Positions 23,752-36,918 of a stretch of DNA of 64,000 bases are shown piece by piece. The notes beneath the pieces are model-generated. The model had not been told where the DNA came from. It saw only the letters and a list, made by a program, of their open reading frames with translations, and ran no database searches. Where the stretch lies: assembly GCA_016215025.1 (NCBI GenBank), contig JACRMI010000139.1:20862-84861 (forward strand), given 5' to 3'. Made by a program: the position numbers and the translations under genes. Numbering within the stretch: the first letter of the stretch is position 1; the number at the start of each line of letters is the position of its first letter. The DNA is from Chloroflexota bacterium. Its GTDB lineage: Bacteria > Chloroflexota > Anaerolineae > UBA4142.

Positions 23752-25406
23752 TGGGCCGCCTGGTACGCGATGGTTAATATGGGACGCGAAGCGGAATCAG
23801 GATGATCGGTCATGTAAACGCGAAAATGCGCGGAGGGGTGACTGTCCTCGGACAACATCAGGAGCAGTCCGCCACCCAGCCGCGAACGTTCGTGCCAGGC
23901 GACGACAGCAGGCGTCACGTTAAGGGTCACCCAGCCCGATTCCGGCAATGGCGCAATATCGAGCGGTGTGCGATCATAGTCTCGTCCGGCGATCAGGCCC
24001 GGCGCGCTCCATGGCGTATTGTAGGTGGCAATCGACGCTCGCCACAGCGTCGCCATTTGATGCAGGACGATCTTGCCGGAAAATGGATCGTTGCCCCAGC
24101 GCACCACGCGCACGCCGAGTGTCGCCGAGATGATGGCTGCCTCGGTCGGCACGCGCGTGATATTGGCGGCGAGCAAAATTCGGTCGGGCTTGTCCGCGCC
24201 TTGCAGTTGAGCAAATTCCGCCGTGTGCCAAGATTCGTCGGGCGTATCCGGATCGAGCCAGGTATCGACGATCATGTTGGGACCTTGGACGGTCAAGGTC
24301 GAGCGCGCCGAATCGGTGTGAGTTTGTTGAGCGAGCTTCGCTAAAAATAATTCGGTGCGCCAGGGTGCGCTGACCATGAACAAGATCACGCACAACGCCA
24401 TCGTAAACAGAACCAGCACGAGATTCAACCAAGCCGGACGGTGGTTGAATAGTTCGAAACTGCGATGGCGCACGGGAGCCGGTGAAAAATCGATAGGCGG
24501 TGCTGGCACGGTCGGTGGTTCGATTGCAGCGCGCACGGCGCTGGCAAATTCAGCGGCGGTTTGATAACGATCAGAAGGATTCTTGGCGAGTGCCTTGAGA
24601 ATGACGCGTTCGATTGCTTCGGGTAAATCGGGACGCAGCGTGCGCGGCGGCGGCAAGGGAGCCGTCATGTGCTTGAGGATAATCGCGTACGGCGTGTCGG
24701 CGTCGAAAGGCAGATGACCGGTAGAGAGTTGATACATGACCACGCCGAGCGCGTAAATATCTGAACGTTCATCGCCGGAATCGCCTTTGCCTTGTTCGGG
24801 CGACATGTACGCGGGTGTGCCAACCGAGCCGCTGCTGTTGGTGATGATGGTGGCATCGATAATGCGGGCGATGCCAAAATCGGAGAGGACGGGGCGACCA
24901 TCGGTGGTCAGGATGACGTTCGAGGGTTTGACATCGCGATGGATGACGCCGCGATGGTGCGCGTACGCCAGCGCATCGGCGAGCGCAGCCACAAGGCGTA
25001 CGGTTTCGGCAAATTCGATGTGGGCATGGAGGGCATTCAGTTCGCGCAGCCGCGCTTTGAGACTCGTCCCGCTGAGGTATTCCATGACGAGGAATGCCAA
25101 GCCGCCGTTGGCGTCAAAGTCATAGACGCGGACGATGTGAGGATGCTCTAGCGCCGCAATCGCTTTGGCTTCGTGACGAAAGCGCGCGGCGAACTCTTCA
25201 TCTCCGGTCAAGTGAGGATGCAAAACTTTGATGGCGACATACCGTTCGAGATCGGGTTGGTAAGCTTTATAGACTTGGGCCATGCCGCCCTGTCCCAGCT
25301 TTTCGATCAAACGGTATTTGCCAAGTGTGATGCCGGTTAAGTCAGAGAGATTGGACCACGATGTATTTCGTAGCGATGACGAATCATCCTTCCGCTCTTC
25401 CGCCAT
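23748..25406 (-). CDS. Hanks-type Ser/Thr protein kinase with one TM and a ~200-aa extracytoplasmic domain
   Basis: Kinase motifs GQGGMAQVYKA, VAIK, HRDVKPSNVIL, DFGIA, GTPAYMSPEQ. One TM (WLNLVLVLFTMALCVILFMV). The ectodomain weakly resembles DNRLRE-type domains. Its stop overlaps the FHA gene start by 4 nt. Confidence 0.9.
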   Translation of the reverse strand: MAEERKDDSSSLRNTSWSNLSDLTGITLGKYRLIEKLGQGGMAQVYKAYQPDLERYVAIKVLHPHLTGDEEFAARFRHEAKAIAALEHPHIVRVYDFDANGGLAFLVMEYLSGTSLKARLRELNALHAHIEFAETVRLVAALADALAYAHHRGVIHRDVKPSNVILTTDGRPVLSDFGIARIIDATIITNSSGSVGTPAYMSPEQGKGDSGDERSDIYALGVVMYQLSTGHLPFDADTPYAIILKHMTAPLPPPRTLRPDLPEAIERVILKALAKNPSDRYQTAAEFASAVRAAIEPPTVPAPPIDFSPAPVRHRSFELFNHRPAWLNLVLVLFTMALCVILFMVSAPWRTELFLAKLAQQTHTDSARSTLTVQGPNMIVDTWLDPDTPDESWHTAEFAQLQGADKPDRILLAANITRVPTEAAIISATLGVRVVRWGNDPFSGKIVLHQMATLWRASIATYNTPWSAPGLIAGRDYDRTPLDIAPLPESGWVTLNVTPAVVAWHERSRLGGGLLLMLSEDSHPSAHFRVYMTDHPDSASRPILTIAYQAAQ

Positions 25407-25503
25407 GGCTCACCTCCGCACTGAGGCACTCGGATAAGTAGACCTGAATGCAGTATACCCCAGGGCGGGAATTTTCGCAAAGGTACTAGCGGTTTGGGCT
25501 AGA

Positions 25504-26178
25504 TCAATCGACCATCGGCAAAGCAGCGATTCGCCAGGTTTCCACCGCAGAAAAATCGATTGTATCTAAATGAGTGGAGTGATTTTGCCCGACAAGCAAC
25601 TCGGACGGCGAATAGTACGCGCCCAGAGCACACGCGCGGCAAAGCAACCGGCCCTCGCGATGAACCTCGCGTTCGTTGATAATGTCTTCGCCACATTCCT
25701 CGCACACCACGCGCAATCCATGCCGACTGATGATGGCTGCCAGCGAAATGTTTAGCTTAACCTCTTGGGCTAAGAGCAGTTCCGTGTTGGGCATCACTTG
25801 GTAGGCATTAAGTTGTGCATGCCATTTGTCAGATGCGTTCGGCGCGTAATCGCGGGCGCGCGTACGCGATTCGCGCGTAGGTGTGATGCGAAGCGCGCAT
25901 TCGGTCAGCGTATCGACGAAGGTCGCTGCACTCTTGCCGTAATCCATCACGCGCATCGTGCGATGTCCCACGGCGCATCCGGTGGCGACCGTAATCCCAT
26001 CGATCAAACAGCCATCGGTTTCCACAAAAGCAAAGAGGCGTTTATCGGCTTGGGGCAAAGCGAGATCCAGGAGTTCGCCCGCATACATCCCCATTCGTAC
26101 GCCGAGGACTTGGCGTGGACATACATGGTCGTGATGAAATTGGGTCGATTGTTCGAGTAAATTCTTTAACTCTGGCAT
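25504..26178 (-). CDS. FmdE-family protein with C-terminal zinc ribbon
   Basis: Start MPELKNLL has a GAGGA SD (the ORF is open to 26259). FHHDHVCPRQVLGVRMG motif typical of the FmdE family. C-terminal CEECG....(13)..CRAC. Confidence 0.75.
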   Translation of the reverse strand: MPELKNLLEQSTQFHHDHVCPRQVLGVRMGMYAGELLDLALPQADKRLFAFVETDGCLIDGITVATGCAVGHRTMRVMDYGKSAATFVDTLTECALRITPTRESRTRARDYAPNASDKWHAQLNAYQVMPNTELLLAQEVKLNISLAAIISRHGLRVVCEECGEDIINEREVHREGRLLCRACALGAYYSPSELLVGQNHSTHLDTIDFSAVETWRIAALPMVD

Positions 26179-26190
26179 GATCTTTTCCTC

Positions 26191-26228
26191 AAAATAAAAA
26201 ATGCCTGTCATGAAAAAGAGACAGGCAT
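26191..26228 (-). promoter_or_regulatory. Hairpin plus U-run immediately 5' of the FmdE-like SD (attenuator/terminator-like)
   Basis: On the minus strand, augccuguc / gacaggcau forms a 9-bp stem followed by uuuuuauuuu, then GAGGAAAAGAUCAUG. The layout is very similar to 32231-32270. Confidence 0.5.
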
Positions 26229-26231
26229 CAA

Positions 26232-26283
26232 CCAAACCTGACAGGTTTTCTCGGCTCATTCGGAACCGCCAAACCTGTCAGGT
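26232..26283. repeat. Two copies of a 15-nt palindromic box CCAAACCTG(A/T)CAGGT
   Basis: Copies at 26232-26246 and 26269-26283, 37 bp apart. The first extends to the perfect palindrome aaacctgacaggttt. A half-copy aaacctgaca occurs at 32383-32392 upstream of the Fe-S subunit gene. Confidence 0.65.
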
Positions 26284-26286
26284 CTC

Positions 26287-26425
26287 CATGTCTCCTTTCC
26301 AAAAACTGCGGAGGCGCGCGTGTTTCCTTGCGCGCCCACAACTCGGGTTAGCGAGTTCCTCGGATCGAGGTTCGGCGCGTACCGCATAGAGTCATCCTCG
26401 GTAGCGGTACGCGCTCGGAGAGAAA
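26287..26425 (-). ncRNA. Candidate molybdenum-cofactor (Moco) riboswitch
   Basis: The minus-strand RNA starts right after the miniprotein stop. It reads UCUCCGAGCGCGUACCGC..GCGGUACGCGCC, hairpins CCUCGAUCCGAGG and AACUCGCUAACCCGAGUU, then GGCGCGCaaggaaacacGCGCGCCUCCGCAGUUUUUGGAAAGGAGACAUGG. As I recall it, this 3' part closely parallels the E. coli moaA Moco element (..GGCGAAGgaagaaaugaCUUCGCCUCCCGUAUCUGGAAAGGUGUACAUGG). 5' UCUCC can pair with the SD GGAGA. Not verified with a covariance model. Confidence 0.45.
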
Positions 26426-26680
26426 TTATTTGGGTTTGAAAAGTGACTGCATCAAGTCGCGATTTTTTGTTTCGACATCACGACACGCCGGGCAACGCTC
26501 GTCGTCATCATTTGCTTGAAACGGTAGACGACACTTGGCGCATTCGTGATCTGCCTCAGCTTGCTTTAGCGCTTGGAGATTTCGAGTTCGTTGTTCGTTA
26601 GCGGCGACGCGTTTAGCTATCGTCTTCAACGGACTGGCGAGCTGCGCGAAGAAATCGCGACGAGAAAGTGATTGGCTCAT
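26426..26680 (-). CDS. 84-aa protein with an N-terminal twin-arginine-like motif (SRRDFF) but no hydrophobic h-region, plus a CxxC..CxxC zinc ribbon
   Basis: MSQSLSRRDFFAQLASPLKTIAKRVAANEQ... followed by CAKCRLPFQANDDDERCPAC. Located between the Mo-subunit gene and the riboswitch-like element. Confidence 0.5.
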   Translation of the reverse strand: MSQSLSRRDFFAQLASPLKTIAKRVAANEQRTRNLQALKQAEADHECAKCRLPFQANDDDERCPACRDVETKNRDLMQSLFKPK

Positions 26681-26690
26681 ATTTGTTCCA

Positions 26691-26729
26691 AGACCTTCCA
26701 GGTTTTCGCAGAGCGAACCTGGAAGGTCT
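26691..26729. repeat. Intercistronic 14-bp perfect hairpin
   Basis: agaccttccaggtt / aacctggaaggtct with loop ttcgcagagcg, between the Mo-subunit stop (26738) and the miniprotein start (26680). No U-run. Confidence 0.7.
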
Positions 26730-26737
26730 CTGCTTCA

Positions 26738-29700
26738 TTACGCTTTCACCACTTTGACTCGCGTATCATAAAACACCGCGCTGCCACCAACCGAATCCAC
26801 GAGCGTCGTGTTCTTCAAGTACGGATCGACGCGCATCGCCGCGTTCGCGTGTATACCGCGCGTGCGTCGCACATCGCCCTTGACGACCTGACCATCAATC
26901 GTCACATCCACGCCGCCGTACGCAAAGTGCCCAAAGCCGAGCGCGAACGATACGACGCCAGGCCGAATGCCTTGAATCACTTTGAGCTTGCCGACGATGG
27001 GAACTTTGGTGCCGTTCTTCAAATCCCATTCGCCGTTCGGATTCGTCGCCGAGACCACACGCACGCGGTCGCCGTTCTTGAGGCCGCGTTTCGCCGCGTC
27101 CTGCGCGTTCATCAAGACCGCATTCTCCGGCAAGAGCGCGAGCAGCCAATAGTTGGTTGCCGTGCGCGATTTCGTTTGGAAGATTTCGCGATACGTGATC
27201 ATTTGCAAGTCGAATCCTTGCGCTTCGTCATCGATCGGTTTTTGCGTCACGTCCACTGGACCCGGGATGTAGGACGGGTATGCGATCAACGCTTTGCCCG
27301 TCATCGAATGCTTGACCTTCGCCGTTTTTTCCTGATACAAGTTGATCAGCTTGCCGTACTTGTTTGCGACCTTGTCGCCGTCGTAAATCTTGGCGTAATC
27401 CTGGAAGCGCCCGCCGCGATTCAGAACAAAGATCACTTTTTTCCAAACCGAATCGCCGACGATCTTTTTCCACTCGTCCGCGTCGAACACGGTCTTGGGC
27501 AAGTGCTTGCGCGCATCGAGGAAAATTTTCACTTCGGCGTCGTCCGCATCCGGCACGCCGTCCGAACCGTCGCTCTTTTCACCGAACGCGAGATTCGCGA
27601 CCATGCGCAAGTACAGATCGTTTTGGTGCACGAGCGGCTTGCCTTCGCCAAAACCGTTTGGACCGAAATTCGGCAGATTCAATTTTTCTGCGATGCCGAG
27701 CAGCATCGCTTCGAGCGAGATCGGCATTTCGCGTCCATACACCTTGACGGTTTCGACGAGCGGCGCGATGGTGGGCTGGCGCACGGGATGCACCTTGACC
27801 GTCATCGATGGATGCGACCCGGCAAATTCCCAACGTTCCATGTTGGTGAGATCGGGGAAGATGTAGTCGGCATACATCGACGTTTCGCCGACGACGATGT
27901 CGTTCGCGATGATGAGCGGAATCTTGTTCGGGTCGGACAGGATTTCGATATTGGCATGTCCCGCCGGCAATGAGTACACCGGCGAACCCATGTAGATGAA
28001 CCACGCTTTCACGCCGTACGGATACGCGTCGCCCATCGAAGGAATTTGTTCTTGATAAATGTCCGACGCGAGCGGATACCAATTGCGCTTGGCCGGATAG
28101 CCCGCAAAGAGTGTCGTGTCTTCGTACTTGATATCGTGGCGGATGATGCTGATGCCGAATGGATTGTGTTTGTTCGGCGTGAGTTTCGACAAGTTGAACG
28201 GACCATCGGCTTTGCTGCCGACCGTGTCGTACGTCGAGACTTTGACAAACCCGCCCTTCCAATCATAGTTGCCGAGCAACAGGTTCAACGTGTTCCACGA
28301 GATGACGTTGTAGAAACCATTCGTGTGTTGCGATACCCCGCGATGAATGTCCGCGCACGCTTTTTTGCCGTGCGATACAAACTCGCGCGCCACTTCTTCC
28401 AGGTCGCGCGCGTTCACGCCTGCGATCTCCGCCCATTTTTCGAACGGGTTCGTGTTCGCCGATCCGGTCAGGATCACGAAGGATGATTTGACCTTGAAAT
28501 CCTTGACCGTCGTATCCACGCTCAAATCGCCAACGACTGCATTCTTGTCGTCGTTCGGATCGAATGCGACCGGCTTGCCGTCCACCAGGACAACGAGTGG
28601 ATCAAACAGGAATTCCTTGCCCTCGCTCGTTTTCCAAACGTCGATTTCTTTGCCGTCCTTGTCCTTGCCTTTTTCTTTTGTCGTGACACCTGCTTCGGTC
28701 GCGCGCAAGAAGACGGTCGGTTGATCTTTTTCGATTTTCACGAGCCATGAGGCGTTGCACCACGACGCTTCTTTCGCCGCGATGGCGGCGGCTTTGTTCG
28801 CGGCGCGCAAGAATTTTTCATCGTACTTTTTGTTATCGACGACCCACCGAATCAGGCCGAGCGCGATTGCGCCTTCGGTGCCGGGTTTGTTCGGCATCCA
28901 CTTCCACGCTTTCGACGCAAGCTTCGACAAGCGCGGATCGATCACGACATATTTGAGTCGTCCACTCGCGAGACCATTCGTGATGCGCGGCACGCGATTC
29001 GACGGACCATAGTTGCCTTCAAACGGCGATGCGCCGACGAAGATGACGAACTCGGAATTTTCGAGGTCGGCTTGCCAGTAGAATTTTTCGCCGCCGGTGA
29101 AACTACCCGCCGCGAATTGTTCGCTCATCGCCTTGCCGGAAAAGTACAGCGAACCTTGGCAGACGGTGGTGTGACCGTGCGCGTTGGTCGAGCCGAACGC
29201 GTCTTTGGTAAAGCGGTTGATGAAATCACTGCGCCCGCCCTTCAAGCGTCCCCAGGTGAACACCATCTGATTGTTCTTGGGTCCGAGATCGGGATGATCG
29301 GGGTCGATCAACTTGTCGAGGTCGGCGGCGAATTTTACTTTGAAATCGGCGACGAGCGCCTTTTTCTTCTCCGCGTCTTTTTCAGCATAAATTTTTGCGA
29401 CGGCATCGCTCATCGCTTTGGCGACTTTGGGATCGCGCAGCGCGTAAATGTCTTTCAAGCCGGTGACCACGCGATTTTCTTCGCCCGCAACGTTCGCGAA
29501 CAATTTGCCGCCGTCGGAAACCTCGCTGATCGCTTGCTCGAATGGAATAGCTTGCCATTTATTTTCGCCACGCTTGCCTGAGCGTTTCAAGACTTTGACG
29601 AGGCGGTACGGATCGTACGTCGTCTGAATGCCTGCGTGCGCCTTGGGACAAATTGCGCCGTCAATCGTCGCAGCTTCCGTCACCGGCGTTTTGTATGGGA

Positions 29701-30013
29701 GGTGCGGATTCAGCGTGAACGGATTGAACGGATTGCCATCGATTTTCGAGATGACGCCGTTCACGAGTTTGACTTTGATGCCGCAGTTGGTGTTGCACTG
29801 TTGGCACACGCTGTAGATAATGTTTTCCGGTTTTGCGAGTGCATAACCTTGCTCTGCCGCTGCGCTCACGACGTTTCCTTCCAGCACATCCCAGGCGAGA
29901 TTAAGTGACGATGCAAACGTCGCCGAGCCGCCAAGGAATGCGCCAATCTTTAGAAAATCGCGACGCGTGATATTGGTGATGGGTTCATCGAGAATTTTAT
30001 TTTGGTCATTCAT
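26738..30013 (-). CDS. Molybdopterin (Mo/W-bisPGD) oxidoreductase catalytic subunit, Tat-exported, Cys-ligated Psr/Phs/Ttr/Arr-type; substrate unknown
   Basis: Tat signal [21 protein letters not shown]-terminal FS0 motif [12 protein letters not shown]...CPKAHAG. Probable Mo ligand in [10 protein letters not shown]. About 1090 aa. Start taken at the second ATG of ATGACCATGAAT (AGGAG sits 8 nt upstream); the ORF is open to 30082. Confidence 0.9.
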
Positions 30014-30103
30014 GGTCATTTCTCCTGTCGTGATGTGTCGTGTGACGTTGGGCGGGTGACGCGAGTTAGCATGTGCCGTCACTCGTCACTTGTCACGCGT
30101 CAC

Positions 30104-31348
30104 TCATTCTGCCTGCGTTCCCGCGCCGCTTGACTCGCGCACAATCGGCAGGACTTGATAACCGATGAGGAACGCGAGCAAGCCCGCTGAAATCGCCCAG
30201 ACTTGGACGAGCCATTCGGTCAGTGTTGGCAAATAATCAAAGCTCAAGCCCGGACCCGTAAACGCTTCTGCCAAGCCGTTGATCTCCGGTACGGCAAGAC
30301 CTGGGATGACGATGTTGAGGCGTACGGTGAAAAACGTGACGGCGATCAACAAACCAGCCACCGCAACCCAGAACGCCGATTTGGGTTGGAAAATCATGAG
30401 CAAAAGGGGAACGACGACGCCCAGTCCGATGTGTACGCCCCAGAATACCCAGGCATAGGGTCCGAACAAAACGAGTTTCATGCTTGCCACATCGGCCGGG
30501 ATTGCAGAATACAATCCGATAGAATACTCTGCCCATTCGAGCATCACATCGAACAACAACAGTCCAAGCGCAATCTTGCCCAGGAAGAGCACTGTGTCTC
30601 TGTGTTCCGCGCTGCCCTGATTCGGTCCAAAGACATAAGTGACAAAGGTGAGCAGCGCACCGCCACTGCACAACGCGCCGACGAGGAACATGATCGGCGT
30701 CAAGCCGGTGTTCCAGTAGGGCCGCGCGCCGACAACGCCGAACAGTGCGCCGACGCCGCCGTGAAACGCAATCGCGAGCGGCACACCCAATGTGCCCAGC
30801 ACGCGCAGAACACTTTTATCGCGTGCGAGTTTAGCTGGGGAAACATCTTTTTGTCCAAAAGTGAGTATCCCTGCCACTTTACCGGCGAAATCTTTGCGTG
30901 TGCTCCACGCAACAAAATCCGCCCGCAACGCGAACCACAGCTCGGCAAGCAGCAAAACAAAGTATGCCGTGTAGAGCCAGATCATCCAGCCCATCATCGA
31001 GCCAAAATTCGTCGCGAACATCAAGCGCCACGCGCGTTCGGGACGACCCAGGTCGAGAAAGACACTGAACATTGCCACCGCGAGTGAAATGACGGCGGTG
31101 AACAACGCAAGCTTGCCAATCTTTTCCAGCTTCTTGATGCCGAATGCGTATACGAGCGCGGAAATAAGGAACGCGCCCGCGGAAATGCCGACGAGATAAA
31201 TGTACGCCCCGATCCACAAACCCCATGGGATGTAACTGCCGTAACTTACATTCATGTGTCCCGTCGCAAAGCGGTCGTACAAGCCGTACGCTCCGGCGAC
31301 GAATCCAATGATCGCGACAAGCCAGAGTAATCGTTTCAAGTTTTTCAT
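30104..31348 (-). CDS. NrfD/PsrC-family quinol-interacting membrane anchor subunit
   Basis: 414 aa with about 10 TM spans, located between the 4x[4Fe-4S] subunit and the Mo subunit. The N-terminal YIPWGLWIGAYIYLVGISAGAF segment is typical of NrfD-like proteins. Confidence 0.85.
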   Translation of the reverse strand: MKNLKRLLWLVAIIGFVAGAYGLYDRFATGHMNVSYGSYIPWGLWIGAYIYLVGISAGAFLISALVYAFGIKKLEKIGKLALFTAVISLAVAMFSVFLDLGRPERAWRLMFATNFGSMMGWMIWLYTAYFVLLLAELWFALRADFVAWSTRKDFAGKVAGILTFGQKDVSPAKLARDKSVLRVLGTLGVPLAIAFHGGVGALFGVVGARPYWNTGLTPIMFLVGALCSGGALLTFVTYVFGPNQGSAEHRDTVLFLGKIALGLLLFDVMLEWAEYSIGLYSAIPADVASMKLVLFGPYAWVFWGVHIGLGVVVPLLLMIFQPKSAFWVAVAGLLIAVTFFTVRLNIVIPGLAVPEINGLAEAFTGPGLSFDYLPTLTEWLVQVWAISAGLLAFLIGYQVLPIVRESSGAGTQAE

Positions 31349-31423
31349 AGTTGATTCTCCAATCAGTGGTCAGTGGTCGGTGGTCAGTGGACATTCTATC
31401 CACTACCCACTGTCCACTATCCA

Positions 31424-32215
31424 CTAGACGAGGTAGTATACCTTCGGCTCGGTGCCCATTTCTTCTTTGAGGCGTGTTACATTCGTCGAGCCGAGCAGAT
31501 TGGACACAAGCGCGTCAGGATCATTTGCATCGCCAAAGTACGTCGCGCGACCGATGCACGTGGTCGTGCACGCGGGCAACATGCCTGCATCCAAGCGATG
31601 ATTGCAGAATTGGCATTTGCGCGCGTTGCCAATCGGCGATTCGTCAGCTTTGCGTTCCCAGGCGACGCCGTATTCGTAGGATGGTAATTTTTCGTACGAT
31701 TCTACTTTGGGGCGACCCGTGACGGACGGCGGTGTGCCGGGCGTGCCTTCGAGGTACGAGCGTCCCGCGTCGAACGTGCGCGCGGAGTACGGGCACGCGG
31801 TCAAGCAATAGCGGCAACCGATGCAGTCGTTGTAGTTGATCGCGACGATGCCATCCGGTCGCTTGTAGGTTGCGTTGACGGGGCAGACGTTGACGCACGG
31901 TGGATTATCGCACTGCATACATGGACGTGGCACAAAGCGGCGCGTCACATTCGGGTACGAGCCGATTTCTTCTTCCATCACCGGGCGATACACCACACCG
32001 GGCGGTAGTTTGTTTTCGACAACGCACGCGATCGTGCAAGACGAGCAACCGACGCATTTGCGTAGATCGAGCACCATCACCCAGCGGCGATCTTTGGCAT
32101 CCTTTTTGAGCGCGCGACGCAAGTCCTCTTGCATTCTGAGGAGCGGGTCTTCGGGTGTTCCGACCGGCGCTGCGCCGACGATGAACTGAGCGAGTTCTTG
32201 GGTCGTGACAGGCAT
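31424..32215 (-). CDS. Four-cluster [4Fe-4S] ferredoxin-type electron-transfer subunit (DmsB/PsrB/TtrB-like)
   Basis: Cys groups [37 protein letters not shown] and [20 protein letters not shown]. Start ATG 32215 has a GGAGGTAAG SD (the ORF is open to 32401). Confidence 0.9.
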
Positions 32216-32230
32216 CTTACCTCCTTGAAA

Positions 32231-32270
32231 ATAAAAAAAGCCAGAGACAACTTTACCGTAGGTCTCTGGC
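32231..32270 (-). promoter_or_regulatory. Hairpin plus U-run immediately 5' of the Fe-S subunit SD (attenuator-like leader)
   Basis: On the minus strand, gccagagac / gucucuggc forms a 9-bp stem with a 13-nt loop, followed by uuuuuuuauuuu, then CAAGGAGGUAAGAUG. Confidence 0.5.
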
Positions 32271-32392
32271 TTGATTCTAACTTCAGGGTAGCCGATTTTC
32301 CAGCAGGGAAACCCTGTTCCAATTGGTACAATGCAAGGGAAATTCCTACAATTTCCCCAAATCTGAAGGGGAAAACCTGACAAGAAAAAATC

Positions 32393-32425
32393 GCGGACCA
32401 AGTCCGCGATTTTTTCTCAATCGGA
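32393..32425. terminator. Bidirectional rho-independent terminator
   Basis: atcgcggac / gtccgcgat 9-bp stem with a 3-nt loop, flanked by aaaaaa and tttttt. Confidence 0.75.
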
Positions 32426-32800: not shown

Positions 32801-33448
32801 TTAGTTGGCTGAATCGATCAACCCGTGTTTCATGGCATATCTAATCAGTTCGGTGCGATTGTGTAAATTGAGTTTTTGCATGATGTTGGCGCGATGCGTC
32901 GCCACGGTGAATGGGCTGAGCACCAACTTGTCCGCGATTTGCTGATTGGTCAACCCTTCCGCAATGAGCGCAAGAATTTCGCGCTGACGCGGCGTCAGTT
33001 CTTCGATTTGTTGTTTCTCCGGCGCGCTGGCGCGATTGAGGTAGTTGCTCACCAGATGCTTGGCTGCCGAGGGCTGCAAATAAACTTGGCCACCTTTGAC
33101 AGCTTGGAGCGCAAGTACAAGTTCGCTCACGTCCGCGCCTTTTAAAATATAGCCCGATGCGCCGACCGCGAGCGCGCGAAACAAATAATCCGCATCGTCA
33201 TGGACCGTGAGCAACAACACATTCACCTCTGGCAGAACGCGTTTGATTTGCGCGGTTGCTTCCAAGCCGTCGAGATCAGGCATTCCAATATCCATCAGAA
33301 CGATGTCCGGTTTGAGCGCACACGTCTGCGCAACTGCTTCTGTGCCATTCGCAGCTTCGCCTACCACTTGCAAATCGGTTTGTGTTTCAAGCAGCGCGCG
33401 AATGCCACGTCGAACGAGCGTGTGGTCATCGGCAAGCACAATTTTCAT
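32801..33448 (-). CDS. NarL/LuxR-family response regulator (triplet 1)
   Basis: Receiver domain with DIVLMDIGMPDLDG. C-terminal LuxR HTH: LTPRQREILALIAEGLTNQQIADKLVLSPFTVATHRANIMQKL. Confidence 0.9.
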   Translation of the reverse strand: MKIVLADDHTLVRRGIRALLETQTDLQVVGEAANGTEAVAQTCALKPDIVLMDIGMPDLDGLEATAQIKRVLPEVNVLLLTVHDDADYLFRALAVGASGYILKGADVSELVLALQAVKGGQVYLQPSAAKHLVSNYLNRASAPEKQQIEELTPRQREILALIAEGLTNQQIADKLVLSPFTVATHRANIMQKLNLHNRTELIRYAMKHGLIDSAN

Positions 33449-33476
33449 GTTGGGCTATATCTCCAAATTGTAAGCG

Positions 33477-35339
33477 TTACGTCGGAATCTCTACCTGGAC
33501 GCGCGTCCCACTTGCTGCGCGACTGTCGATCTCCAATCGTCCACCCACCAATTCCGCGCGCTCGCGCATGCCAAGCAACCCCATCGTGCCGGCGCGTGAT
33601 GCGCTGATGGTATCGAATCCTATACCGTCATCTTCGACGAGGGCAGCAATGCGACACGTTTCAAAACGCAATACGATGGTCACGTGGTTGGCGTGCGCGT
33701 GTTGCACGATATTGTTCACGGCTTCTTGCACGATGCGAAAGAGCGCGGTCTCGCTCTGCGATGCGAGTCGTCGCCGCGCGCCATGAACTTGGAAATCGAG
33801 CGCGAGTTTCGCCGTCGCACACGCGCGCTCCGCGAAACTTCGCAAGGCGGGCGCGAGACCGGCATCGTCGAGCACGCTGGGACGCAAGTCAAACATCAAT
33901 TGGCGGGTTTGATCGAGAATTTGCGATGCCAGAATGCGGGTCTCGGTCAGGCGGGCGTGCGTCGGTGCATCGTTCGCAAGCGTTTGCTCGTGCGTCTGCA
34001 AGCCGACGATCAACGCCGTCAGACTCTGCGCGAATTCGTCGTGCAGTTCGCGCGCGATCCGTTTGCGTTCCTCTTCCTGCGCTTGGATCACATGGTCGAG
34101 CAGTTGGCGATGGAATTGCTCGCGCCGCTGAGCTTGAGCTAGTTCGAGATTCTCAATGGCTAAACCGATCTGTTGTCCCATCGCCGTGAGGAGACGCAGA
34201 AGGTCGGCTCCAAAATAATCTGCATCTGCGCACGCTAGATGCAAAGCGCCCCACCCACGCGCGCGTGATACGAGCGGAACTAACGCATGGTAGGCGCGCG
34301 GCGCGAGCGTAGCGCAGATTTGACCGTCGTGCGCGACACAGGCTGCGCTGCGCATATCGCACGCGCAATCACACGAGGCAAGTTGCGCAGCGAGTTCAGG
34401 GGATACTTGACGTGTTGCGAGCACACTCAAGTTTTCGCCGTCGCGCAATACAATCCAGCCCATCGTAAGATTCGTGACCCGAAGCGTTTCGTCGAGCGCG
34501 CTGGTCAAGAGCGCGTCCACATCGGCGCTGTGGCTGATCGCTGTAGCGAGCGTGTTTAGCGCTGCAAGCTCTTCGTTGCGTTCGCGCAATTGCGCGTTCG
34601 ACGTTTGCAGTTCACCCTGGGAACGCGCGAGCGCGTGCGTCATCGCGTTGAATGAATTGCCAAGCTGCGCGATCTCTTCTTGTCCGGCAATCGGCGCGAC
34701 GGGTGTGAAATCGCCGCGGGCAACCGCACCAGTCGCCGCAACCAGCTTTTCGAGCGGACGCGCCAGCACTCGCGCGAGCAAATATGCAGTGATGAAAACG
34801 GGAAGCAAACTCAATAGGGTCACGAGCATGAGGTTCCACGTATGGCGATCAATATCTGCGTTCATCGCGCGTTCGGACATGCCGACCCGCACCACACCAA
34901 TCTTGCCTTCGAGTAATGGCGCGGCGACATCGAGCACAAAACCTTCCTCGGTGCTGATGCGCTGCAAGTGATTTTTCCCAGCGACGGCGACACGATTGGC
35001 CGCGACGATTCCTTTGGGGACGCTGCGTCCGAAACTATGCGCGAGAACGCGGTCGTTCGCGTCGAGGACGAGAATGTAACGCAGGTCGGGATTGTTGAGC
35101 AGCGCATCGCTGATCAATTCGTTTAGGCGAAACAGGTCGTCGGTCAACACCACGTCGGTCGCATATGCGGCGAATGCAGACGCAGTCGCCACACTCCGCT
35201 GGTCGAATTGTTCGCGCGCGAAGGATTCGACTTCGGCGCGATTCAAGTACGTGCGAATCAAGCCCAACCCAAGCGTGAGCAACAACATCGCGCTGACAAG
35301 TTGAAAGGAGAGACTGGAGAAGCGAAGCCAACGCATCAT
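33477..35339 (-). CDS. NarX-type sensor histidine kinase: periplasmic domain, HAMP, Cys-rich GAF, HisKA_3, HATPase (triplet 1)
   Basis: Two TM spans flank a ~150-aa periplasmic domain. HAMP motif (PLEKLVAATGAVARGDF). GAF with SCDCACDMRSAACVAHDGQIC. H-box RIARELHDEFAQSL. G-boxes DDGIGF and GLLGMRERA. Overlaps the upstream binding-protein gene by 4 nt. Confidence 0.85.
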   Translation of the reverse strand: MMRWLRFSSLSFQLVSAMLLLTLGLGLIRTYLNRAEVESFAREQFDQRSVATASAFAAYATDVVLTDDLFRLNELISDALLNNPDLRYILVLDANDRVLAHSFGRSVPKGIVAANRVAVAGKNHLQRISTEEGFVLDVAAPLLEGKIGVVRVGMSERAMNADIDRHTWNLMLVTLLSLLPVFITAYLLARVLARPLEKLVAATGAVARGDFTPVAPIAGQEEIAQLGNSFNAMTHALARSQGELQTSNAQLRERNEELAALNTLATAISHSADVDALLTSALDETLRVTNLTMGWIVLRDGENLSVLATRQVSPELAAQLASCDCACDMRSAACVAHDGQICATLAPRAYHALVPLVSRARGWGALHLACADADYFGADLLRLLTAMGQQIGLAIENLELAQAQRREQFHRQLLDHVIQAQEEERKRIARELHDEFAQSLTALIVGLQTHEQTLANDAPTHARLTETRILASQILDQTRQLMFDLRPSVLDDAGLAPALRSFAERACATAKLALDFQVHGARRRLASQSETALFRIVQEAVNNIVQHAHANHVTIVLRFETCRIAALVEDDGIGFDTISASRAGTMGLLGMRERAELVGGRLEIDSRAASGTRVQVEIPT

Positions 35340-36250
35340 TTTTTCGATTGTCCGGCGCGAGTTCGCATCGCGCGGACTGAATCGTACAGCGCATCCTCCG
35401 GCGCAGCAAAGCGATCGAACCCTATCTTGGCGAGGATCGCGCGACCGGTATTGTCCGTGTGCATCGACAACAGCGCCGCACGCAACTGAGTTTTCAAGTC
35501 GGGGTCGAGATTCGGACTGACGACGAGCGGTGAACTGCCGTACGGTCCATAACGCGCAAGGATGCGCGTGCGCGCCGGCAGCGGCGAACCGGATGCGACG
35601 AGAAAGTCGAAAACCTGGTTATCTACCGTTGCGCCGTCCACCAAATTCTCCGCCACCGCTTTGATGGAATTGTCATGGCTGTACGTGAAAATGGTGCGAC
35701 TGAAAAACAGATCGGGCGTAGTCTTGAGCTGCAAAAGTTGATCCACCGCGACAAGTCGTCCGGTGTTTGAAAGCGGATCAGAGAACGCAAACGTCTTGCC
35801 GCGCAAATCGGCGAGCGATTTCGCGGGGCTATCGGAGGGGACGATCAAGTAAGCATAGTACACGATCTCGCCTTTTACTTCCGGTACGACGAGGGCTTGC
35901 ATTCCAAATTGCTCTTGCCCTTCGAGGTACGCGTTTGTGCAAACCACCGCCAGCGCCACGGTGCCTTCGCGCACCAGATTATTGATCTCGTCGTAGGTTT
36001 TGCCTTGCACAATCTGCGCCGGGCGATTTAATTGTTGCCCCAGATACGTGGCAAGGTCTTGATAGAGGGTGAGACTCGTGCGCGGCGAATAGACGGGCGC
36101 GATGGCGATTCGGAGAATGTCCGCGTTCACGGAGGCAACTGCTGGAGTCGGCGCGGACGTGTCCAAATCGCCGAGCCGCACGCGTGGCACGTTCGCTTCT
36201 GATGCACACGCTGTTAAAAAGATAAACCAGATCGCGAGGACATTCTTCAT
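35336..36250 (-). CDS. PhnD-family periplasmic oxyanion-binding lipoprotein (triplet 1)
   Basis: Lipobox FLTAC. Also LRIAIAPVYSP...Y..L..YL...L.RP...V...TY.E...L, the FTYSHDNSIKAV motif, and clear paralogy to 38849-39781. Start is ATG 36250, just after the RR2 stop (the ORF is open to 36277). Confidence 0.8.
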   Translation of the reverse strand: MKNVLAIWFIFLTACASEANVPRVRLGDLDTSAPTPAVASVNADILRIAIAPVYSPRTSLTLYQDLATYLGQQLNRPAQIVQGKTYDEINNLVREGTVALAVVCTNAYLEGQEQFGMQALVVPEVKGEIVYYAYLIVPSDSPAKSLADLRGKTFAFSDPLSNTGRLVAVDQLLQLKTTPDLFFSRTIFTYSHDNSIKAVAENLVDGATVDNQVFDFLVASGSPLPARTRILARYGPYGSSPLVVSPNLDPDLKTQLRAALLSMHTDNTGRAILAKIGFDRFAAPEDALYDSVRAMRTRAGQSKK

Positions 36251-36258
36251 TAATGTAT

Positions 36259-36918
36259 TTACTCTTCCATCATCCAACCGGCTTGAATTGCGTACCGTAC
36301 GAGCGCGGCGCGGCTTTTGAGACCCAGTTTTTCCATGCCGCGCGCGCGGTAGCTTTCGACGGTTTTGACGCTGAGGGCAAGCTGCTCGGCGATTTCTTGA
36401 TTCGTGTGACCCAGGGCGACCAGTTTCAAAACCGCGCCTTCACGTTCGCTCAGATCAATCGGCGCAGCATTCGATTCATTCGCCGGCAACATTCTATCCA
36501 GCAACACTTTGGTGTGCGAAGGATGGATGTACACATTGCCGCGCATCACCGCGCGAATCGCCGAAATCAGTTCGGCGTCGGCTGCGCTTTTGGGACAATA
36601 ACCCGCCGCGCCGGATTCCAATGCGCGTTTGAGGTATCCTTCCTCTTCGTGCATCGTCAGCACCAACACGCGCACATTCGGTTGAGCGCGGCGAACGTGT
36701 TGCAGCACTTGGAGACCATCGCTCTTGGGCATCGAAATGTCGAGGAGAAGCAAGTCGGGCGATTGCTCGCGGACAGCTTTGATGGCTTCGGCTCCATTCG
36801 TCGCTTCACCGACGACGATTAGATCGTCTTGCGCGTTCAGGAGCATTTTCAAACCGGAGCGCAAGACGGAGTGATCGTCGGCAATAATGATTCGCGTTTT
36901 ATTCATTGATTGGCTCAC
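36259..36918 (-). CDS. NarL/LuxR-family response regulator (triplet 2)
   Basis: Receiver domain with DLLLLDISMPKSDG. C-terminal LuxR HTH: LSEREGAVLKLVALGHTNQEIAEQLALSVKTVESYRARGMEKL. Confidence 0.9.
   Translation of the reverse strand: MSQSMNKTRIIIADDHSVLRSGLKMLLNAQDDLIVVGEATNGAEAIKAVREQSPDLLLLDISMPKSDGLQVLQHVRRAQPNVRVLVLTMHEEEGYLKRALESGAAGYCPKSAADAELISAIRAVMRGNVYIHPSHTKVLLDRMLPANESNAAPIDLSEREGAVLKLVALGHTNQEIAEQLALSVKTVESYRARGMEKLGLKSRAALVRYAIQAGWMMEE

Follow-up and report, generated by a model that had tools for sequence, protein, structure and literature searches.

For the Moco RNA motif, Regulski et al. (2008, PMC2408646) described terminator platforms, platforms with the ribosome-binding site (RBS) in P1, and OFF-switch behaviour; in the same work, P3-containing RNAs went with molybdenum-cofactor (Moco) genes and P3-less RNAs with tungsten-cofactor (Tuco) genes, which is a correlation and not a proof. 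That paper contained no occurrence of 'Chloroflex' or 'formylmethanofuran', and an FmdE target was not mentioned in it. The FmdE family (PF02663), to which the regulated gene of the present locus belongs, was represented by structures 2glz, 2gvi, and 3d00 (PMC2954224). Its name goes back to methanogens, where it was found co-transcribed with formylmethanofuran dehydrogenase, a context that applied to only 13/208 members (PMC2954224); Axelrod et al. (2010, PMC2954224) also pointed to a chaperone role and to a fusion with the molybdopterin-binding domain PF00994. No paper was found in which FmdE is connected with either a Moco riboswitch or MoaA.

The locus described below was located on the minus strand of a 64-kb window (the whole stretch of DNA that was analysed). 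This locus and the E. coli moaA riboswitch shared family RF01055, P1–P5 architecture, P4 GAAA tetraloop, P2 receptor bulge, conserved cores CUCCGAGC, GCCUCC, and GGAAAGGAG (the conserved 3' core of the aptamer), the presence of P3 (Moco class), and a predicted OFF-switch behaviour with feedback on Moco-related genes, but they differed in the following: (i) E. coli hid the SD and start of moaA in or next to P1 (translational platform), while the window had a predicted terminator/antiterminator 60–100 nt downstream; (ii) P3 was composed of two hairpins in the window and of one in E. coli moaA; (iii) the window riboswitch was apparently placed inside an operon, while that of E. coli moaA was found in the 5' leader after the promoters; and (iv) the first regulated gene was of the FmdE family in the window and moaA in E. 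coli. Moco RNA motifs with intrinsic terminators, such as the triple arrangement of Syntrophomonas wolfei, shared with the window the layout of a stem-loop and U-run behind the aptamer, which gives transcriptional attenuation, but the S. wolfei examples had no P3 (presumed Tuco class) and were located in a 5' leader (PMC2408646).

The Moco RNA motif aptamer and its helices

The RF01055 (Moco RNA motif) match was found by cmscan at 26432-26276 (minus strand; 66.4 bits, E 8.8e-14, against a gathering score of 36 bits); it spanned model positions 1-135 of 135 and was the single match in the 64-kb window among all 4227 Rfam families. Within 26100-26800, no Rfam family besides RF01055 appeared even at E<=1. 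The element was thus a genuine and intact Moco RNA motif member and an ordinary one of a known class; the earlier note had proposed a Moco riboswitch at this place from the letters alone, and its proposal was borne out by this match together with the covariation in homologous loci (see below). The gene context was also that expected of the family, whose members lie next to genes for Moco synthesis, molybdate transport, or Moco-dependent enzymes: a TtrA-like molybdoenzyme operon was located directly upstream, and in relatives MoaA was located directly downstream of the regulated FmdE gene. The 3' end of the E. coli moaA riboswitch, as quoted in the earlier note, was exact: it matched 33/33 nt in 5425/5426 E. 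coli genomes, and these matches fell under features annotated 'riboswitch' and 'moaA'.

P1 was formed by UCUCC (26421-26417; invariant in 18–20 of 20 homologues) with GGAGA (26295-26291). The 11-bp P2 (26375-26414 in the RF01055 alignment) consisted of the strands GCGCGUACCGC (26414-26404) and GCGGUACGCGC (26385-26375), with a CUA/AUG tetraloop-receptor bulge plus a distal stem CGAG/CUCU; the CUA...AUG bulge columns agreed with the model consensus, and the receptor was near-canonical and not the exact 11-nt motif. P3 was composed of two hairpins, namely P3a (CCUCG-AUC-CGAGG; 26358-26370, with 26370-26366 pairing with 26362-26358) and P3b (AACUCG-CUAACC-CGAGUU; 26340-26357, with 26357-26352 pairing with 26345-26340). 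P4 (26312-26337 in the RF01055 alignment) had a GGCGCGC/GCGCGCC core, a GAAA cap (tetraloop at 26326-26323), and the arms GGGCGCGC.../...GCGCGCCU, while P5 (26299-26311) was composed of CC, a 9-nt loop, and GG in both the RF01055 and the homologue alignments. Four hairpins had been listed before the family was searched; all of them were real and corresponded to P2, P3a, P3b, and P4. They were followed on the minus strand by GCCUCCGCAGUUUUUGGAAAGGAGACAUGG, and the aptamer 3' strand UGGAAAGGAGACA (26289-26301) included the 3' strand of P1 and was also the 5' strand of a proposed antiterminator (see below). The 271-nt region as a whole had a folding z of -8.1 relative to shuffles.

The sequence comparison was then extended to homologous loci with two covariance models: (i) R1, with a seed of five sequences whose variable loops were hand-trimmed or N-padded, and (ii) R2, rebuilt from 20 real sequences; the figures given here come from the 20-sequence alignment A5. 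One R1 match (L006, 5384-5504) was rejected as a false positive, since it lay inside a coding region, had no Rfam support, and was not found by R2; it was counted in alignment A4 and left out of A5. In A5, 91.4% of the aptamer pair cells held standard pairs, a count biased towards the model because the alignments were fitted to an author-seeded one, and the covariation score was 0.56 vs. 0.165 for shuffles (0/500 reached 0.56) and 0.06–0.10 for slid partners. Compensatory changes, counted under the same bias, were found in 10/11 pairs of P2, 4/5 of P3a, 6/6 of P3b (97% of cells paired), and 6/9 of P4, so the covariation that the earlier note had looked to for support was indeed present in these four helices. 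P1 and P5 were conserved and paired in the alignment, GGAAAC of P4 was invariant in 20/20 sequences, and RNAalifold recovered P1 to P5 independently. The two-hairpin P3 was found in most clade members, while L034 and L047 had one hairpin (P3a absent), like the Rfam consensus. As for peripheral variation, an extra hairpin of 30–40 nt was observed in the P5 loop of L118, L067, L042, and L019, and P3-region inserts were observed in L083, L021, and L093; some inserts stretched the aptamers to 200–243 nt with the core junction sequences intact.

Gene order in the window and in related loci

The minus strand of the window displayed the gene order PhnD-like, histidine kinase, response regulator, FeS, NrfD, TtrA-like, palindrome, 84-aa gene, riboswitch, and FmdE. 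The operon upstream of the aptamer (26738-32401) was assigned from domain matches and was composed of a TtrB/DsrO-like FeS subunit (32401-31424), an NrfD membrane subunit (31348-30104), and a TtrA/PhsA-like molybdopterin oxidoreductase of 1093–1114 aa with a Tat signal (30082 or 30019 to 26738); the last one had a TtrA score of 473 bits, far under the 1750-bit cut-off. Further upstream on the same strand, 32801-36277 encoded a PhnD-like periplasmic binding protein, a NarX/UhpB-like histidine kinase, and a LuxR-type response regulator, which probably provide substrate-responsive transcriptional control of the molybdoenzyme operon. A search of sequencing runs found the locus in no RNA run, and the DNA runs were groundwater metagenomes.

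The 84-aa gene (26426-26680) ended with the stop TAA at 26428-26426, 4 nt ahead of P1. An 82-aa ORF at the equivalent position of L003 was 65% identical to it without gaps, and on this sequence conservation the 84-aa gene is a real, conserved small gene, so the intercistronic position ascribed to the RNA stood up. The 84-aa protein matched no Pfam family, and its sole NCBIfam match was a weak sub-threshold one to HypA. It may serve the Tat-exported molybdoenzyme as an accessory protein. Two side features of this protein were observed: it had an N-terminal SRRDFF twin-arginine-like motif with no hydrophobic stretch behind it and two CxxC pairs, and its C-terminal CxxC...CPxCR...LFK was also found at the end of a protein with a 4Fe-4S ferredoxin domain, encoded shortly before the L001 riboswitch.

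The regulated gene (25504-26190, including SD GAGGA at 26190-26186) started with ATG at 26178 and encoded a 224-aa protein, which contained PF02663 (1.2e-28) plus a C-terminal zinc finger (zf-dskA_traR) and gave a structure match to PDB 2gvi. Its 3' side was composed of about 100 nt plus a promoter-like TTGCGA-17-TATACT, followed by a Ser/Thr kinase gene. The sigma-70 scan of 25000-28000 gave nothing upstream of the aptamer; a promoter candidate TTGATG-19 nt-AATAAT, noticed by eye inside the 84-aa gene, was rejected, as its start would fall inside P1 and its spacing was not kept in L003. With neither a preceding intergenic space nor a promoter-like site, the aptamer would most simply be transcribed from the molybdoenzyme operon, and the riboswitch would gate the read-through from this operon into FmdE, although a transcription start inside the operon is conceivable.

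The protein search gave 4491 homologues of the FmdE protein, and 160 loci (80 genome plus 80 metagenome loci) were compared; all but one of the 80 genome loci were titled Chloroflexota (one Acidobacteria), and most were Anaerolineae. Among these 160 loci, 26 further ones from Chloroflexota genomes and metagenomes carried RF01055 above the gathering score (L001, L002, L003, L008, L019, L021, L026, L034, L038, L042, L047, L067, L081, L082, L083, L085, L090, L091, L093, L102, L118, L133, L135, L150, L151, and L155), and L086 carried a 5'-truncated copy additional to the 26. All 26 matches were located upstream of FmdE on the same strand, and they were within about 300 nt of the FmdE start in 21/26 loci (22 with the truncated L086).

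The upstream genes varied across these loci: (i) L003 had the order MopB, small gene, riboswitch, and FmdE, as in the window, and L133 had MopB, riboswitch, and FmdE; (ii) the riboswitch unit was found behind an unrelated radical-SAM gene with its own promoter-like sequence in L002 and L008, and behind a rhodanese-domain gene in L081; (iii) L047 (107-6663) had an FeS–NrfD–MopB (1101 aa)–FmdE operon as in the window, with its single Moco riboswitch placed 5' of all the operon genes and not directly ahead of FmdE; and (iv) the Moco riboswitch of L038 (1902-6627) headed an operon composed of NTPase_1, a fused double ABC ATPase, a 202-aa protein, an Oxidored_molyb-like protein (208 aa), a CbiQ-like transmembrane component, and, at its end, FmdE. 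The L038 operon is a candidate Moco-regulated ECF-type transporter. Three additional observations were made downstream of the riboswitch: a P-loop ORF directly after it in L118 and, between it and the FmdE start, two sets of short tandem repeats seen in the raw sequence, namely about three copies of GCCTGGTGCGCGC at 2763-3000 in L082 and CCCTATCCCCA-like runs at 2650-2990 in L102.

Two REP-like palindromes, and two only, were found in the 64-kb window, one between the MopB stop and the 84-aa gene (26733-26690) and the other in the aptamer–terminator linker (26285-26234). They displayed the pattern AGACC-N5-GGTT ... AACC-N5-GGTCT with covarying inner bases. Palindromes elsewhere were located at L001 5889-5922, L003 5480-5513 (the same element at the equivalent place, from the MopB stop to the small gene), and L008 5788-5821, and in the P3b loop of L082, where the arms of the insert (CCTGTCAGG/CCTGACAGG) were those of the window linker hairpin; the sites occupied around the riboswitch were thus after the MopB stop, in the aptamer–terminator linker, and inside the P3b loop. 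With the strict pattern, copies were found nowhere but next to the riboswitch, namely in L001, L003, and L008. The palindromic boxes gave no Rfam match even at E<=1 and were not assigned to a known RNA family; in appearance, each is a small palindrome of insertional type.

The predicted expression platform and alternative readings

An intrinsic terminator (26191-26229), supported by folding and covariation, was located downstream of the aptamer. It consisted of a 10-bp stem GAUGCCUGUC/GACAGGCAUU (26229-26220 with 26209-26200), a 10-nt loop, and the U-run UUUUUAUUUU directly after the stem; in 10 loci, compensatory changes were found in 6/11 pairs and 90% of the cells were paired. The hairpin was not listed by the simple terminator scan, which accepts loops <=8 nt. 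The earlier note had mentioned a terminator-like hairpin as an item separate from the riboswitch; this separation did not hold, the hairpin being most probably the expression platform itself.

The antiterminator 3' strand would be UGUCUCUUUUUCA (26211-26223), which overlapped the 5' arm and loop of the terminator and was complementary to the aptamer 3' strand UGGAAAGGAGACA; in the minimum-free-energy fold of the full 271-nt window RNA, 26301-26289 paired with 26223-26211 over 13 bp. The relatives had UCUCCUUUC(C) in place of UGUCUCUUUUUCA, which was the complement of the invariant aptamer strand GGAAAGGAGA, and the 10-nt core complementary to GGAAAGGAGA was kept in 10/10 loci with 8–10 of 10 core pairs. 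Because the aptamer strand does not vary, the antiterminator cannot show covariation, and shuffles equalled the observed values; of this comparison, only the in-register excess of complementarity (86% vs. 52–62%) speaks for the pairing. Each locus had a different, unrelated hairpin as the linker of the two antiterminator strands, ranging from 20 to about 170 nt; in the window the linker contained the long palindromic hairpin of 15 bp plus 6 bp at 26234-26285 (see above), which would bring the antiterminator strands together.

Equilibrium folding of the window and L002 gave the antiterminator with the P1 3' strand included and the terminator with this strand withheld. In L003 and L150, the terminator won at equilibrium even with the P1 3' strand free, so that any switching in these two loci could only be kinetic. 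Another sub-group (L150, L102, L135, L093, and L034) had a different terminator, GCCGUCUC..GAGACGGC, whose 5' arm was complementary to GGAGACG of the P1 3' strand.

On these data the element, which belongs to the Moco RNA motif and, having P3, to its Moco class, quite probably works as an OFF switch of transcription within an operon; we infer its ligand, its switch direction, and its co-transcription with the upstream genes. The terminator and antiterminator would be best read, from base pairing and conservation, as the classical transcriptional OFF riboswitch design. RNA polymerase would come from the FeS–NrfD–TtrA-like–84-aa genes and transcribe the aptamer. When Moco is scarce, UGGAAAGGAGACA (26301-26289) would pair with UGUCUCUUUUUCA (26223-26211) across the stable linker hairpin, and the antiterminator would thereby occupy half of the terminator stem and allow read-through into the FmdE–zinc-finger gene. 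With Moco bound, the aptamer 3' strand would be retained by P1 (UCUCC/GGAGA) and the junction; the terminator (26229-26200 plus U-run) would then form and transcription would end about 15 nt before the FmdE ribosome-binding site.

Two other mechanisms were weighed against this transcriptional OFF switch. The element comes after the last of four operon genes, so the hairpin plus U-run might be a constitutive operon terminator, with FmdE expressed from its own promoter and the aptamer being a relic or acting on the upstream mRNA; this is highly improbable, as only 12 nt with no promoter-like site separated the U-run from the FmdE SD, the aptamer was fully intact (66 bits), and the aptamer–terminator–FmdE unit also occurred behind unrelated genes (L002 and L008) with its own promoter-like sequence, which ties it to FmdE and not to the upstream operon. 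Control might instead be translational, with P1 sequestering GGAGA as the SD of a mini-ORF whose translation influences FmdE expression downstream. The mini-ORF AUG GAG ACC UGA (26289-26278) and the FmdE-like ATG at 26178 were both present as the earlier note had read them, and the pairing of UCUCC with GGAGA that the note had pointed out was real, being P1 itself; the layout also resembles that of E. coli moaA, and in the more distant relatives L133, L155, and L021, the FmdE ATG lay 8–10 nt after GGAG, an arrangement in which true SD sequestration of the FmdE start, i.e., an E. coli-type SD-in-P1 platform, does appear to occur in the clade. The SD idea would thus be right for these three loci but not for the window: the mini-ORF AUG was just 2 nt past GGAGAC, which is poor spacing, and it was missing from all eight closest relatives (GGAGAACGAG, GGAGAGCAAG, GGAGACUGUG, GGAGAAGCUG, GGAGAAAGCC, GGAGACCGUA, and GGAGAAGCGG), while the gap from the aptamer to the FmdE start was 109 nt with two strong hairpins plus the U-run, and FmdE had its own SD, GAGGA (26190-26186). 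The mini-ORF (26278-26289), found in the window only, was accordingly judged fortuitous, the leader-peptide mechanism and the sequestration of a mini-ORF SD were rejected, and translational control of the window locus has very little to recommend it.

The remaining alternative concerns the ligand of the OFF switch and not its mechanism. Ligand assignment has been indirect for every member of the family, the family is named 'Molybdenum/Tungsten riboswitch', and FmdE itself was named after Mo/W formylmethanofuran dehydrogenase operons (PMC2954224); the aptamer could on these grounds sense Tuco or the common precursor (MPT) instead of Moco. This is unlikely, although less so than the two mechanisms above: two covarying hairpins of P3 were present, and P3 goes with Moco genes (PMC2408646), which by the Regulski correlation indicates the Moco class rather than the Tuco class. 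In addition, the neighbouring enzyme was TtrA/PhsA-like.

A possible role of FmdE in molybdenum-cofactor supply

The regulated protein shared with the PF02663 structures the N-terminal alpha+beta FmdE core plus a C-terminal Cys4 zinc finger. Residues H15, C20, C57, and C68 were invariant and were all located in the N-terminal domain, the domain in which a zinc-binding site was placed by the structural work (PMC2954224). The genetic contexts differed: the family was named from methanogen operons, while in the window and its relatives the partners were a TtrA-like reductase, MoaA, or an ECF-type transporter under predicted Moco feedback.

The next gene after FmdE was MoaA (Radical_SAM plus Mob_synth_C domains) in L001 and L002, and the order riboswitch, fmdE, and then MoaA further downstream was found in L082, L093, and L102. 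A census of MoaA by a degenerate CNxxCxYC DNA pattern with Pfam checks, which undercounts MoaA, gave a pattern gene no more than about 1.5 kb downstream of FmdE on the same strand in at least 16/160 loci (L001, L002, L015, L022, L032, L037, L058, L068, L069, L070, L080, L082, L093, L100, L102, and L128) and one upstream of FmdE in two more (L095 and L103), giving at least 18/160 in total; 10/10 of the pattern genes checked against Pfam were MoaA. The MoaA–FmdE adjacency was found in loci with and without the riboswitch. There was no moaA in the 64-kb window.

A role for FmdE in cofactor handling, which the earlier note had raised, gained more support than could be seen from the window alone: the riboswitch was paired with FmdE in 26 other loci, and MoaA came after FmdE in many relatives. 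The Moco feedback and the MoaA adjacency are new circumstantial evidence for FmdE in cofactor supply or insertion, and FmdE–zf would help in Moco supply or insertion on two grounds: (i) the gene was under predicted Moco feedback via a dedicated riboswitch, and (ii) fmdE was repeatedly first in an fmdE–moaA unit, or last in molybdoenzyme or ECF-type transporter operons. Because enzymes that use Moco are under the control of such riboswitches as well, the presence of one does not by itself prove a biosynthetic role. That the FmdE–zinc-finger proteins (PF02663) are an unrecognised component of molybdenum-cofactor supply in Chloroflexota is therefore put forward tentatively, as a proposal about which we are nearly evenly divided; possible roles would be that of a MoaA partner or of a metal/cofactor chaperone for Tat-exported bis-MGD enzymes.

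The RNA itself was routine, in that any Rfam-based annotation would find it, and the useful part of the finding is the regulated gene. The locus would illustrate neatly how a riboswitch can gate an operon from within, an arrangement in which the structural genes of the molybdoenzyme would be transcribed regardless and the accessory gene only when the cofactor is short. The link between riboswitch and FmdE was found in 27 loci (the window plus 26) of uncultured Chloroflexota, whatever the upstream genes. To a family known from three crystal structures but with no function assigned, it offers a concrete hypothesis that can be tested, and it constitutes independent regulon-type evidence for PF02663 in Moco biosynthesis or insertion.
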